The notes: a model not told the origin generated them from the sequence alone. A DNA stretch of 14,200 nucleotides from a virus (IMGVR_UViG_2778261543_000011); one strand, 5' to 3'. Shown: positions 8,208 through 12,426, numbered from the stretch's first letter. Numbers and translations are program-made.

Positions 8208-8299
8208 GCTTCACCTCCGCAGAGGTCAAACGCTAGATGCAAAGAATTGCAGGTGCATTTCTGCATCTGTGAAGGGAGAAGAGAGTTTGGATTGTATGT

Positions 8300-8357
8300 G
8301 CGCATAAACGTCCCCGTTTAGCGCAGAAGTCACCGGAGTTGTTCAGGCTCCGGTGAC
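8300..8357 (-). other. tandem stem-loops between ybcM and the nin gene
   Basis: gcgcataaacg-tcccc-gtttagcgc (8300-8324) and gtcaccggag-N9-ctccggtgac (8329-8357). No clear U-tract, so the terminator role is uncertain. Confidence 0.25.
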
Positions 8358-8421
8358 ATAATTATGCCGTGTTGATTTCCCAAAATCAAAATCGATAGAA
8401 TTGCTCCTTCTTAAAACACTT

Positions 8422-9219
8422 TTACTCTCTGGAAGCTTTTCTTATCTCTCTTGGTGTTATATTAAAACGATTATGAAATCTTTCAGTAAAACGAGAAGGA
8501 CACTTATAACCATTTTCTCTGGCAATCTCGCTTATAGGTTTTACCGTCGTTTGTATAGCAGACAACGCATTATTTAACCTCACATCGTCCAGTATACTTT
8601 GGAAACTTACCCCCTCGCTTGCTAGACGGCGATGTAATGTAGAAACAGAAATGTAGAGATATCGAGCAACCTTGTTTGCTGTCCATTTTGTGCCGGGTTC
8701 GGATAGCAGCAGGTTATAACAACGACTTATCAATGATTGTTTACTATATGATAAAAGTAAATGATTAACATGATTCACTCCTAACGAAAGTAGAACGCCC
8801 ATTGCTAAGTGCTCCTGAATTTTAGTTGAGAAGCCTCGGGAAACAGATGTTTTTAGTTGCTCCCAACAATATATTAACTCAGGATTCTGAGGTAAAAAGA
8901 AACTTGTTTTGTTACGTATTTGATCAGTTACCGTATAAAGTTTTTGGAAACTCTCAATTAAATCAATGGGTAAGTAAAGCATTTCTGCAAGATAAAGCCC
9001 TGCTTCAGGATAATTCTCAATATAAAATTCATAACCACAAGGAAATAATATTATTTGATTATTATCAACAGTTAAAGTATGCGTCTCCCAATTGATAACT
9101 TTCTTTCCCTGACGGATACGACACAAAGCTGGCATAAGAGGCTTAACCCTATGAATCTCATGATGTTTATGCATCCGTATTTCTTCGATCTTTAAGTTAG
9201 TCTTACCTCTTGCCAGCAT
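8422..9219 (-). CDS. ybcM: AraC-family transcriptional regulator (YbcM-like)
   Basis: 265-aa ORF with C-terminal AraC HTH ([46 protein letters not shown]...). AT-rich. Immediately downstream of ybcL with a 10-bp gap, so probably an operon. Confidence 0.8.
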
Positions 9220-9228
9220 ACTCTCACC

Positions 9229-9780
9229 CTACTTTATCTCATAAACTGGTGTTATCTCAGCGGTTGCGATTTTATTAGCATTAAGCATATAACCAACTAA
9301 CGCTCCGCTGGAGTTAGAATCTACAGGAATCTTTTCAGTTTTTAGAGCCCATACTTTAAACTGGTAATGATGTGGTTTATCTCCTTTAGGAGGACATGCG
9401 CCACCAAACCCAGCATAGCCAAAATCATTTCGGCCTTGAACAGCACCAGTCGGCAGTTTTGTTCCATCACGTCTCCCTGCATCAACGGGCAAATATGTTA
9501 CTGTTGCTGGAATATTAACAACAGTCCAATGCCACCAACCACTGCCTGTAGGTGCATCTGGATCATATACAGTTACGGCAAAGCTTTTGGTACCTTCAGG
9601 AACACCAGACCAGGTTAATGAGGGCGATGTATTACCACCTTCACACCCAAATCCAGAAAAGACATGAGACGTTGTAAGTTGCTCTCCTGTTTTTATTTCA
9701 TTACTAGTGACCTGAAATGCTGCAGCCTGCGCAGAAAATGTTATGAATGCCAATACAGTTGAAACGATAAGTGTTTTCAT
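9229..9780 (-). CDS. ybcL: periplasmic PEBP/RKIP-family protein (YbcL-like)
   Basis: 183-aa ORF. Signal peptide MKTLIVSTVLAFITFSAQA. PEBP signature motifs (VYDPDAP, HHYQFKVWAL). Confidence 0.85.
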   Translation of the reverse strand: MKTLIVSTVLAFITFSAQAAAFQVTSNEIKTGEQLTTSHVFSGFGCEGGNTSPSLTWSGVPEGTKSFAVTVYDPDAPTGSGWWHWTVVNIPATVTYLPVDAGRRDGTKLPTGAVQGRNDFGYAGFGGACPPKGDKPHHYQFKVWALKTEKIPVDSNSSGALVGYMLNANKIATAEITPVYEIK

Positions 9781-9996
9781 AAAAACCTCTTTGTTATGAC
9801 CTATCGTTATTTTATTTGATATTCCTTTATCTCATTATGCATAAAGGCGCAATGTTCATGCAAAAGCAATCACAATTGTACCCCCAACCCAATTATTTGC
9901 CACAATATACACAAAGCACATTGATACTATCTAAAAACTCTGCTTTATTATTAGTAATACCTACGAAAGTCGGTGTTATTTTTTAACCTACCATTC

Positions 9997-10046
9997 AAAA
10001 TACGTGACATACACCATTTTGCTCATAATAATTTGTCACGTATTTT
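9997..10046. repeat. 13-bp perfect inverted repeat with 24-bp spacer
   Basis: AAAATACGTGACA (9997-10009) ... TGTCACGTATTTT (10034-10046). Lies about 200 bp downstream of the ybcK stop and upstream of the ybcL start. Confidence 0.6.
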
Positions 10047-10244
10047 CAGTATTTGAATCTGCGACCAAGAGTTCTCACCTAACAAATGATTAAGATTGTA
10101 TAGCTCATTTACTACCCCAATACAGCCGTACAAAACTCGCTTGTGGGAGCAAACAAAGTAATTACCCATTAAGTTTCGTCAAAGATAATTAATTCTGTCT
10201 TGCACTTTATCACCATAGCATAACTTAAAATCCGAGATCATTAT

Positions 10245-11771
10245 TTAGAAATAAATCTCACCATCAACCATATATTTGAGAGCACTTATCGCCTGCTGGG
10301 CGGATATTACTTTCATTAAAGGATAGTGTTTAAAAACAATGCCATTCATAAAATAGATATCACAGGTTTTATTATCCGTATTAATTATGATTTTTTCGAA
10401 TGTTTTATAGGCAAGTGTACGGCATAACTCTCGTCCATTTTTACTGGTTAAGTCAATAGCATAAAAATCACTGAATGAATTTACACCTTTACTCTTCAAA
10501 GTTTTCAATGATACCGAAGCCCTTCGTAATTCCTTATCTAATAGTCTTATTTTCTCTGCTATAGCGGTAACTTCAGGCGCGACAGACAATGCAACGATTA
10601 AATTATTAATTTTCATCTGAAGCTCAATAATTTTTAACTCTAAAGTTTCATTAGCATCTTTCTTGTTTTCAACTGGTTGAATTTTGCTACAATTAAAAAG
10701 CAATTCATTAATGATATTATAATCAACCAAATCTCTTTTTATTGATGGCCTGTCACATCGATGTAATCTTCTCATCGGACAAACATAATAGCCATGCAAA
10801 CTTCCAGATACCGCATGAACAATCATGGTATTACCACAAGCCTCACACTTCATAACTGTTCGAAGTAGATTTATTAGCATAGGATTCTTGCTACTATTGC
10901 TAATACCAAAAGGTGCCAACCGAATTTCCTGTACAGCGTAAAACAAATCATCTGATATGACTCTGGGATAATAGCCAGCGATTTCACTTATCCCTTTCCC
11001 TCTTGCACGATATGAAGGTACGCATATACCTATCAGAGCTTTATTCGCTAATAATTTTTCAATTACAGAAGGTCCCCATGCACTTTCTTTTCCTGAGAAA
11101 TTCTTTACAGCATGATCATTTAAATACTTGGCTATTGCATTCAATGAGCGCCTTTCCATCCTGAGTTTAAAAATTAGCTCAATAGTTTTCACCCTGTCGG
11201 GGTCTGGAACAAAAGCCGTTCTTTTGTCATCTAAGGAGAGCCATCTCGGACAAGACGCCGTCATAATCGTACCTGATTCCAGTGCATCCTGCCGTTTTTT
11301 CTTCCATGATAATTTAACCCGACTTGACTTTATCTCGCTTTCTTCATTTGCCCTTTGTGCTATAAGTATGGCTTTTATTAATGAATATGGCTCATTCAAA
11401 GAGTCAATATTATAGACTGTATTGTCGCAAAGAGTTATAACATCAATACCGTGATTCAAAATCAATTTCAGACGTTCAATCGCTTCACCGACTTTTTCTC
11501 TTGAAAGTCTGTCCAGACTTTCAACTAACAATGTAGTTCCTGGCAATATATAACCATGCTCTATAGCATCTAAAAATTCCGAAAAAGCTCCTGATTGTGC
11601 ATGCTTTCCTTTGAATGCACTTAATCCTAAATCTTCATATGTTATGGTATCAAGATAATAATCACTATTTACCTTTAACCATTCAGCAATAAGTCTTCTC
11701 TGTCGGTTTAATGAGTCGCCAGACATCTGACCTGGTGATGAAAATCGCATATATGCTATGGCTTTTTTCAT
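10245..11771 (-). CDS. ybcK: large serine recombinase (YbcK-like)
   Basis: 508-aa ORF. N-terminal resolvase-type catalytic domain (AIAYMRFSSPGQ...LLVESLDRLSR), central recombinase domain, Cys-rich zinc-ribbon-like segment (CEACGNT...YYVCPMRRLHRC), then a coiled-coil-like stretch. Confidence 0.85.
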   Translation of the reverse strand: MKKAIAYMRFSSPGQMSGDSLNRQRRLIAEWLKVNSDYYLDTITYEDLGLSAFKGKHAQSGAFSEFLDAIEHGYILPGTTLLVESLDRLSREKVGEAIERLKLILNHGIDVITLCDNTVYNIDSLNEPYSLIKAILIAQRANEESEIKSSRVKLSWKKKRQDALESGTIMTASCPRWLSLDDKRTAFVPDPDRVKTIELIFKLRMERRSLNAIAKYLNDHAVKNFSGKESAWGPSVIEKLLANKALIGICVPSYRARGKGISEIAGYYPRVISDDLFYAVQEIRLAPFGISNSSKNPMLINLLRTVMKCEACGNTMIVHAVSGSLHGYYVCPMRRLHRCDRPSIKRDLVDYNIINELLFNCSKIQPVENKKDANETLELKIIELQMKINNLIVALSVAPEVTAIAEKIRLLDKELRRASVSLKTLKSKGVNSFSDFYAIDLTSKNGRELCRTLAYKTFEKIIINTDNKTCDIYFMNGIVFKHYPLMKVISAQQAISALKYMVDGEIYF

Positions 11772-11952
11772 GGTGACACCTGCTAACGTATGCTTTTATA
11801 AACCTTAGTGGTGGGATATAATTTTTGTTTAATTTTTATTTAAAAAGACAATTAAGGTCACATTATCTTGAATATACAACAATAATCGTATTGCAATTTT
11901 CTTACGCCATAATCTTGAAAGCACAAAAGAATACATAAAAAATAAAGACATT

Positions 11953-11995
11953 AACAAAAAGCATAAAACGAGGCTCATATAAATATAAGAGCCTC
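11953..11995 (-). terminator. putative intrinsic terminator downstream of emrE
   Basis: 7-bp stem gaggctc/gagcctc (11970-11995); on the minus strand it is followed by GTTTTATGCTTTTTGTT. About 30 nt past the emrE stop expected without the frameshift. Confidence 0.45.
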
Positions 11996-12026
11996 CATAT
12001 TTTAGTCGTTTAGAAACAAATTATTT

Positions 12027-12359
12027 TAATGTGGTGTGCTTCGTGACAATAAATTAATAACCAACACACCGGCACAAATCAACATCATGCCTATAATGGC
12101 TGGCAGGTCCAGCCGTTGGCCGAAAAATCCCCATGACAGTAAGCTAATCAGGACAATACCTGACTCCTGACCAGATAGCATAAGCAATCCCTGTAGGAAT
12201 ATAAGCCAGCGTCTGAGCTAATAACCAGAATGATGCACAATAACAAATAATTGTACCAACAGATGGCCATAACCGTGTAAAACCTTCTGAAAACTTCATT
12301 AAGGTTGTACCAATGACCTCTGCAAGTATTGCACCACCAAGATAAATATAAGGGTTCAT
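12027..12359 (-). pseudogene. emrE: SMR multidrug efflux transporter EmrE, interrupted by an apparent +1 frameshift
   Basis: From Met at 12359: MNPYIYLGGAILAEVIGTTLMKFSEGFTRLWPSVGTIICYCASFWLLAQTLAYIPTGIAYAIWSGV, then RYCPD-stop at 12144. The remaining EmrE sequence (GIVLISLLSWGFFGQRLDLPAIIGMMLICAGVLIINLLSRSTPH-stop at 12027) is intact in the adjacent frame. One extra base near plus-strand 12161. Confidence 0.7.
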
Positions 12360-12426
12360 AGCATATTCTTTCCTGTTCAAACTGGAGAGAATTGTACTAC
12401 AGTTTGAACTCAACTCACCTGTTTCA

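Follow-up and report, generated by a model that had tools for sequence, protein, structure and literature searches.

How does a lambdoid phage come to carry a large serine recombinase in the middle of its early-right operon, and did that recombinase bring in the genes that surround it? The question is raised by IMGVR_UViG_2778261543_000011, a viral stretch of 14,200 nucleotides (here called the window) that we read as a DLP12-type lambdoid prophage of Escherichia coli on grounds given below. About 4.0 kb of cargo, comprising emrE, ylcJ, ybcK, ybcL and ybcM, stands between ren and a NinB-like gene in the window. Lambda has no cargo between ren and the nin region. A preliminary description, made from the sequence alone, took 8208-12426 to be a moron block of four AT-rich genes and suggested that it may be the remnant of a separate integrative element with its own recombinase, YbcK. 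Our comparisons make it likely instead that the block is multi-module cargo in a lambdoid accessory hotspot, built by the ordinary mosaic recombination of phages, and that YbcK is neither the integrase of the phage nor the agent that placed the block.

A variable slot between ren and the nin genes

We set the boundaries of the block by blastn of the window against lambdoid prophages and phages with other contents at the same place. The comparison set comprised O157 (L003), in which emrE-ybcK stands alone; ECONIH1 (L004), with emrE-ybcK, a P22AR-C gene and a gene for a hypothetical protein; Perceval (L008), with emrE-ybcK plus an alpha/beta hydrolase; Turner (L106); and three loci with different cargo, namely DUF4041 in CD45 (L005), SIR2 in OW1E2 (L006) and two small open reading frames (ORFs) in an O9:H10 strain (L016). 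Backbone homology coming from rusA stops at window positions 8389-8391 in all compared cargo variants. It restarts at 10204 in variants that have emrE-ybcK, and in variants that lack this pair it restarts at 12455-12467, in the 3' end of ren, or at 12726; the right boundary lies at 12436-12466, within the 3' end of ren. Because backbone homology reaches 8389-8391 in every variant, the true left edge of the cargo is at about 8390 and not at 8208. Within the extent first proposed, 8208-8390 is therefore backbone and the cargo begins at about 8391.

The conserved side of this junction includes a hairpin at 8329-8357 (-22.2 kcal/mol, z = -3.1) that is present in all cargo variants and has no U-run; we take it to lie roughly where lambda has its terminators between ren and ninB. 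Farther along, a 431-bp deletion with a 10-bp overlap at 7902-7911 (blastn) joins the 5' part of the NinB-like ybcN to the 3' portion of ybcO, with loss of ninE. At least six alternative contents occur between ren (or P) and ylcH, and the cargo genes are all oriented as O-P-ren. Variable cargo of this kind is a mark of morons, and the earlier view that accessory genes of the moron type separate ren from the nin genes holds. The junction between ren and ninB is a hotspot for cargo, and its left boundary is fixed.

The four genes first described were all found on the minus strand with Pfam support, and the small ORFs ylcJ and ylcH are to be added to them. The suggested check of base composition and codon usage bears out their AT-richness. 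GC content is 36.3% in the cargo (8391-12426), compared to 50.6% and 50.5% in the flanks (7381-8390 and 12427-14188), and GC at third codon positions (GC3) is 0.26-0.30 in ybcM, ybcL, ybcK and ylcJ, compared to 0.51-0.58 in ren, P, O and rusA. The block is thus distinct from the backbone in composition, as expected of moron cargo.

Modular composition of the block

If the whole 4.2-kb block were the remnant of one integrative element that entered between ren and ninB by means of YbcK, several of its properties would be accounted for: GC and GC3 are uniformly low over all modules, a recombinase gene lies inside, and lambda has no cargo here on its established map. The distribution of the genes argues otherwise. 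Of 5426 complete E. coli genomes, 1427 carry ybcK, none in more than two copies, and only 668 have the complete block. An emrE-ybcL junction without the 2083-bp ylcJ-ybcK segment occurs in 2628 genomes (about 48% of those searched), while O157, ECONIH1, Perceval and Turner have emrE-ylcJ-ybcK without ybcLM and with other cargo in its place. These four variants also lack the 268-bp junction piece between ybcK and ybcL. A single integrative element should be present as a unit, but these modules are found apart in thousands of genomes.

The position of ybcK and the nature of the block edges point the same way. A recombinase that moved the block would be expected at one of its edges, but ybcK lies inside, with 1.85 kb between it and the left edge and 0.65 kb between it and the right edge. 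The left edge is a shared slot junction that the unrelated SIR2 and DUF4041 cargo also uses. A repeat search of the window found only short, chance-level matches as direct or inverted repeats at the ends of the block or of its modules, with no repeat pair and no attachment (att) sites at the block ends. Comparison with related prophages, which the preliminary description had called for, defined the boundaries but disclosed no target duplication, and neither a terminal inverted repeat, an empty site nor an excision allele was found for the block or its ybcK module. We conclude that the block is mosaic, with three or more AT-rich modules (emrE, ylcJ-ybcK and ybcL-ybcM) that assort independently; its origin as one 4.2-kb unit inserted by, or left from, a YbcK-driven element is very improbable.

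The arrangement that lacks ybcK also shows what becomes of the cargo. Its trio of emrE, ybcL and ybcM is sited between yedF/yedK and fliE (L002, L017). At the fliE locus of strain HH45, window positions 5166-6873 (nmpC and the last quuD codons) are joined to 8205-9935 (the ylcH region, ybcM and ybcL), which is joined in turn to 12024-12435 (emrE); strain fS149a has an IS200/IS605 transposase gene in place of the porin. This island is a decayed DLP12-like prophage that has lost all phage backbone genes and kept its cargo, so the accessory genes outlive the phage. Because dN/dS (the ratio of nonsynonymous to synonymous substitution rates) between the fliE-locus copies and the window copies is 0.011 for emrE, 0.076 for ybcL and 0.124 for ybcM, the comparison indicates that all three remain under purifying selection. 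Roughly half of the complete E. coli genomes that were searched have retained such a phage-less fossil beside fliE, with emrE, ybcL, ybcM and, in some strains, nmpC.

The block occupies a hypervariable slot of the early-right operon, between ren and the conserved backbone of hairpin, ylcH and ninB (ybcN). We propose that its three modules, the last of them an autoregulated ybcL-ybcM operon, arrived separately and not as one unit, and were assembled and reshuffled by the homologous and illegitimate recombination usual in lambdoid mosaics. The cargo is apparently kept for its benefit to the lysogen, in the form of efflux, a periplasmic PEBP protein and a stress and motility regulator, and after decay of the phage it would survive as the remnant beside fliE. 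YbcK belongs to a clade whose genes are accessory cargo of lambdoid and other temperate phages in Enterobacterales.

Insertion or deletion of the ylcJ-ybcK segment

Mobility might still be confined to the ylcJ-ybcK module, either the full 2083 bp or a 1.8-kb core (10204-12018), which would then have entered 7-11 bp past the stop codon of emrE. Compared with the fliE-type trio, the segment is indeed a single-point indel with an ambiguity of at most 11 bp. Recombinase modules of about 1.8 kb are common to unrelated Pantoea contexts, with limits at -223 and at +59 to +80, and the family is found in phage, plasmid and integrative and conjugative element (ICE)-like contexts. Plasmids of Duffyella have a solitary recombinase gene between metabolic genes: on that of D. 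gerundensis (L108, 9001-10530) a YbcK homolog with 51% identity stands by itself, with an aldo/keto reductase gene on one side and an iron ABC transporter operon on the other, and homology to the recombinase-less Erwinia billingiae plasmid pEB102 stops 151 bp upstream of it, an empty site being definable on one side only.

Other evidence disfavors such a mobile module. In the inspected E. coli contexts ybcK is always beside emrE, and no genome exceeds two copies. Homology decays gradually towards the left junction of the segment, with no sharp stop, and convincing terminal inverted repeats were not found. The upstream limits of homology around the recombinase ORF vary by pair: -18, -65, -68, -120, -150, -223 and -247. 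No ybcK-less allele matches at more than 94.3%; that best candidate, a junction in HH45, was rejected as an excision allele, as it combines a fliE-type intergenic region with a converted emrE and is a gene-conversion hybrid. Strain c1-17, which has ylcJ without ybcK, was uninformative owing to an IS1-associated truncation. The ren/P22AR-C empty site that a putative emrE-ylcJ-ybcK element should leave was seen in 0 of the 5426 genomes.

Because the fliE remnant lost the backbone genes from quuD to ylcH by deletion, a further deletion may account for its lack of ybcK. The indel thus appears compatible with either insertion or deletion, with nothing that would point to YbcK as its agent, and we regard a self-mobile ylcJ-ybcK module as unlikely.

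The recombinase YbcK

YbcK has the features by which large serine recombinases are recognized: a catalytic domain, Recombinase and zinc-ribbon domains, and a C-terminal region. Its Pfam matches are Resolvase (5.5e-19, residues 4-161), Recombinase (2.3e-14) and Zn_ribbon_recom (7.9e-8), and it matches the PHROG serine-integrase family phrog_95 ("integrase") at 4e-120. In an alignment of 17 family members with 42-61% identity, R9, S11, D47, D87, R88, R91, C309, C312, C331 and C339 are invariant. The catalytic residues, whose lack would have counted against the preliminary description, are intact, as are those of the zinc ribbon, and the assignment to this class stands. Residues 167-449 are collinear with the C-terminal domain of the A118 integrase in a single-sequence search, and this weak match (E = 0.02) suggests that YbcK may contain a coiled coil; a profile search of solved structures with the family alignment gave no match.

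Measured against the Perceval and ECONIH1 alleles, ybcK has a dN/dS of 0.077-0.094 at a dS of 0.10-0.13. The gene is intact and under purifying selection, not a decaying remnant, and its product is presumably still catalytically active on some site. It has remained uncharacterized save for a sabinene-tolerance phenotype (PMC7181518). The prophages that bear ybcK lie at argU (window type, K-12) or at icd (O157), in each case beside a tyrosine integrase; YbcK is not the integrase of the prophage, in agreement with the preliminary description. The full block is also found in a viable phage, PhiR34_1, which has a tyrosine integrase of the lambda type.

YbcK could also provide the phage with a second, functioning site-specific recombination system, for alternative integration or as an inversion or resolution switch. 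The gene is kept intact in viable phages at a dN/dS of 0.08-0.09, and relatives of it are found repeatedly in the early-right operon of lambdoid phages from several genera. A candidate site is a 50-bp palindrome that is as long as an att site of serine integrases and lies 199-248 nt downstream of ybcK. However, the inner 24 nt of the palindrome are asymmetric, and it is confined to the DLP12-type arrangement (675 genomes), being missing from O157, Perceval and Turner, where ybcK is equally conserved. No second copy was found in the window or the compared loci, and we rejected the palindrome as a shared att site on the grounds that other ybcK variants and relatives lack it and that it has no second copy. 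Across the E. coli genomes, the window and the compared loci, neither a second site, an inversion polymorphism nor alternative integration was seen. The palindrome is also upstream of ybcLM, a location at which YbcM binds (PMC8464067), and it could equally be an att-like site or a regulatory site for ybcLM. A second system of this kind, which would add a function to the mosaic slot and is compatible with it, seems to us a tentative possibility.

YbcK relatives in other genera

Homologs of YbcK with 42-61% identity occur across Enterobacterales. They lie between the replication genes and Q in Atlantibacter RC6 (L020, 60% identity) and in two further loci (L111, 59%; L112, 61%), and between P and Q in Pantoea dispersa (L102, 42%), which has its own tyrosine integrase, and Pantoea alvi (L035, 48%). 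The order in Atlantibacter RC6 is O, P, three small ORFs, a C5 methylase, the recombinase, DinI, DUF1367, NinG and Q; of L111 and L112, one has SIR2 some way before the recombinase, DinI, DUF1367, NinG and Q, and in the other the order from the recombinase on is the same. With homologs found repeatedly from P to Q in lambdoid prophages outside E. coli, we regard ybcK as a regular accessory gene of the nin region. The preliminary description had named, as a finding that would count against it, that these genes are ancestral nin-region content without discrete boundaries; this applies to ybcK, with its relatives in the nin regions of Atlantibacter, Pantoea and L111/L112, but only in part to the block overall. 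The family comprises recombinases that are under selection and are present in lambdoid phages of several genera alongside the integrase proper to each phage.

Two of these loci carry a partial duplicate of a backbone gene beside the insert: a second copy of P in L035 (9256-9693 vs 12152-12859, 75% nucleotide identity) and a DUF1367 fragment in L111 (9623-9851 vs 12609-12831, 82.5%). Splitting of the backbone gene by insertion of the recombinase was rejected, since the second copy is full length and only 75% or 82.5% identical. The partial copies come from a different phage lineage and are instead scars of non-allelic recombination between different phages. Around the recombinase ORF itself, most pairs of related genes in different contexts lose homology at 18-223 bp on the upstream side and at 0-80 bp on the downstream side, while in one Ewingella pair it extends to +406.

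Several observations weigh against a mosaic slot in which YbcK is only an accessory. Homologs also stand at prophage ends, after the tail-fibre assembly gene and next to host genes such as ssrA in Atlantibacter (L009) and lepA in Erwinia (L014), with further loci of this kind in Ewingella (L098), Pantoea and Yersinia; this is the classic position of an integrase. Homologs at the margins of small elements are also seen, in one case with an AAA_25 protein, and L026 lies beside SDR genes. The family may therefore include true integrases. The single-point indel of the ylcJ-ybcK segment is also the pattern that a discrete insertion would give. No exactly empty ren/ylcH junction occurred in the genomes searched, the shortest content being the two small ORFs (about 750 bp), which leaves the ancestral state of the slot unobserved. 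Lastly, the recombination route that we propose is read from the comparative anatomy of the loci. We nevertheless consider mosaic assembly of separate modules the likely origin of the block.

The same distribution raises a broader, still speculative idea: YbcK-type recombinases might form a conserved accessory recombination system of the temperate phages of Enterobacterales, located in the P-to-Q operon beside a tyrosine integrase and at prophage ends. We think this possible but doubtful. Such a system could take the form of a second integration or rearrangement function that serves the phage, or of a recombinase-only element of about 1.8-2.1 kb that rides phage genomes. A substrate of YbcK, if found, could explain why a phage keeps two recombinases and could supply a new enterobacterial serine integrase for genome engineering.

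Other contexts of the family include an ICE- or plasmid-like region and the solitary genes on plasmids. At prophage tail ends a pair of small genes, one of about 80 aa and one of 107-130 aa with a weak Peptidase_S24 match, accompanies the YbcK homolog in four loci (L009, L014, L098, L103), upstream of the recombinase in three and downstream in one. In Citrobacter koseri (L100, 8145-11530) a homolog with 50% identity is divergent from the gene for a 555-aa protein with a faint Shufflon_N match, and the region also has TraD, a MobA/MobL relaxase and a pilin-like gene.

The accessory genes and the prophage

The gene emrE is present, but it starts with the ATG at 12359, not at 12413, and has a +1 frameshift, with one extra base at 12161 in alignment to the intact emrE of PhiR34_1. 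It is therefore a pseudogene in this window; emrE is also intact in K-12. The pairing of ybcL and ybcM, said to be poorly understood, is by now partly accounted for. YbcM binds upstream of ybcLM and other genes in chromatin immunoprecipitation with exonuclease digestion (ChIP-exo), and its loss lowers peroxide survival eightfold (PMC8464067); a meeting report ties it to the switch from motility to biofilm (PMC9966839). The YbcL variant of uropathogenic E. coli suppresses neutrophil migration (PMC4810123).

No block protein matched a PADLOC defence model, and a role of the block as a defence system was rejected for this reason. Rfam families were not found within the block, and promoter-like matches there are no commoner than in shuffled sequence. 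The features of the slot and its flanks are collected in Table 1.

Table 1. Slot, cargo and flanking features in window coordinates.
Feature	Positions	Strand	Support
ybcN'-'ybcO fusion ORF, NinB-like flank	7794-8207	-	Pfam YbcO on C-terminal part; RefSeq partial genes
ylcH and hairpin, conserved phage backbone	8204-8390	-	88-98% homologous in L003-L006, L008, L016, L106
ylcH, small ORF	8204-8305	-	RefSeq annotation
ybcM, AraC-family regulator, operon with ybcL	8422-9219	-	Pfam HTH_18 9.5e-17
ybcL, periplasmic PEBP/RKIP-like protein	9229-9780	-	Pfam PBP 3.2e-42; RefSeq
ylcJ-ybcK module, 2083 bp, missing at fliE locus	9936-12018		blastn vs L002, L017; junction alignments
Junction piece, 268 bp, full-block DLP12-type arrangement only	9936-10203		675 genomes, one copy each, including MG1655
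Perfect palindrome, 50 bp, between ybcK and ybcL	9997-10046		13-bp arms AAAATACGTGACA, 24-nt spacer; repeat search; fold z = -3.5
ybcK, intact large serine recombinase, 508 aa	10245-11771	-	Pfam, PHROG
ylcJ, 49-aa ORF travelling with ybcK	11829-11978	-	RefSeq; no PHROG or PADLOC match
Terminator-like hairpin and U-run just 3' of emrE, emrE-proximal end of ybcK module	11960-11995	-	-15.2 kcal/mol, z = -3.6
emrE, SMR multidrug efflux pump	12026-12359	-	Pfam Multi_Drug_Res on both halves; RefSeq "frameshifted"
ren, last backbone gene before slot	12427-12729	-	PHROG Ren-like exclusion protein 6e-42; RefSeq

We assign the window to a DLP12-type prophage from its gene order, sequence and chromosomal context, which all agree with K-12. 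The genes on the minus strand run O, P, ren, emrE, ylcJ, ybcK, ybcL, ybcM, ylcH, the ybcN'-'ybcO fusion, rusA, ylcG and quuD; past quuD lie nmpC, which is on the plus strand, tail-fibre remnants accompanied by a Pin-like invertase, and then appY. Positions 1-12948 are 99.985% identical to E. coli strain PSS-07, whose annotated YbcK, YbcL and YbcM accessions are identical to those of DLP12 in K-12 MG1655 and whose matched prophage is linked to argU, with appY and ompT downstream (RefSeq annotation). The 268-bp intergenic piece between ybcK and ybcL is 99.6% identical to that of MG1655. The emrE-ybcK-ybcL-ybcM stretch is thus the annotated accessory region of DLP12, already known, and finding it here adds nothing new in itself.

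Some neighboring features of the window can be added. Between nmpC and appY, this strain has lost most of the lysis, head and tail genes. A second serine recombinase, a 196-aa invertase of the Pin/Gin type (3376-3966, plus strand), lies beside remnants of tail-fibre assembly genes (4064-4639 and 1368-1553, both minus strand), with a direct repeat of 154 nt nearby (1307-1460 and 4078-4231, 82% identical); the window showed no clear invertible segment. The tail-fibre-assembly gene region also contains an Rfam match to IS009 (RF02111, 220.9 bits; 4098-4296, minus strand).

Comparison with known systems

The closest known arrangement is that of K-12 DLP12 (renD-emrE-ylcJ-ybcK-ybcL-ybcM-ylcH-ybcN), where gene content, gene order and chromosomal site (argU ... 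appY) are all those of the window. The window differs from it in its frameshifted emrE, a ren without IS3, full-length O and P, the fusion of ybcN and ybcO by the 431-bp deletion, and an intact nmpC. This nmpC/ompC-like porin gene lies at 5504-6586 on the plus strand, and in K-12 MG1655 an IS5 stands beside it.

Like the integrases of A118/LI, phiC31, Bxb1 and TP901-1, YbcK has three domains, a catalytic serine and a zinc ribbon with four cysteines. Unlike integrases of the A118/phiC31 type, its gene has no identifiable attP, attL or attR adjacent to it and sits in the early-right operon of phages that use tyrosine integrases, and its similarity to solved integrases is weak (E = 0.02). TnpX of Tn4451 and TndX of Tn5397 are large serine recombinases that move a discrete segment without long target duplications, and they are the model for a self-mobile ybcK; unlike these transposons, ybcK in E. 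coli shows no circular intermediate, defined ends or multiple insertion sites.

The moron concept is reportedly due to Hendrix and colleagues. Like lambdoid morons, the block consists of extra genes amid backbone, with deviant composition, at least one terminator-like hairpin and alternative cargo in relatives; unlike the usual moron, it is multi-modular, not a single gene, and carries a large serine recombinase, which is unusual. P2 and P4 prophages have hotspots in which a fixed backbone junction holds interchangeable cargo. The block in the window differs from the defence hotspots of P2 and P4 in lacking any PADLOC match, its cargo being efflux, PEBP, regulator and recombinase genes, but the slot that it occupies resembles them in its fixed junction and swappable cargo, which in some members includes the defence-type SIR2 and DUF4041.

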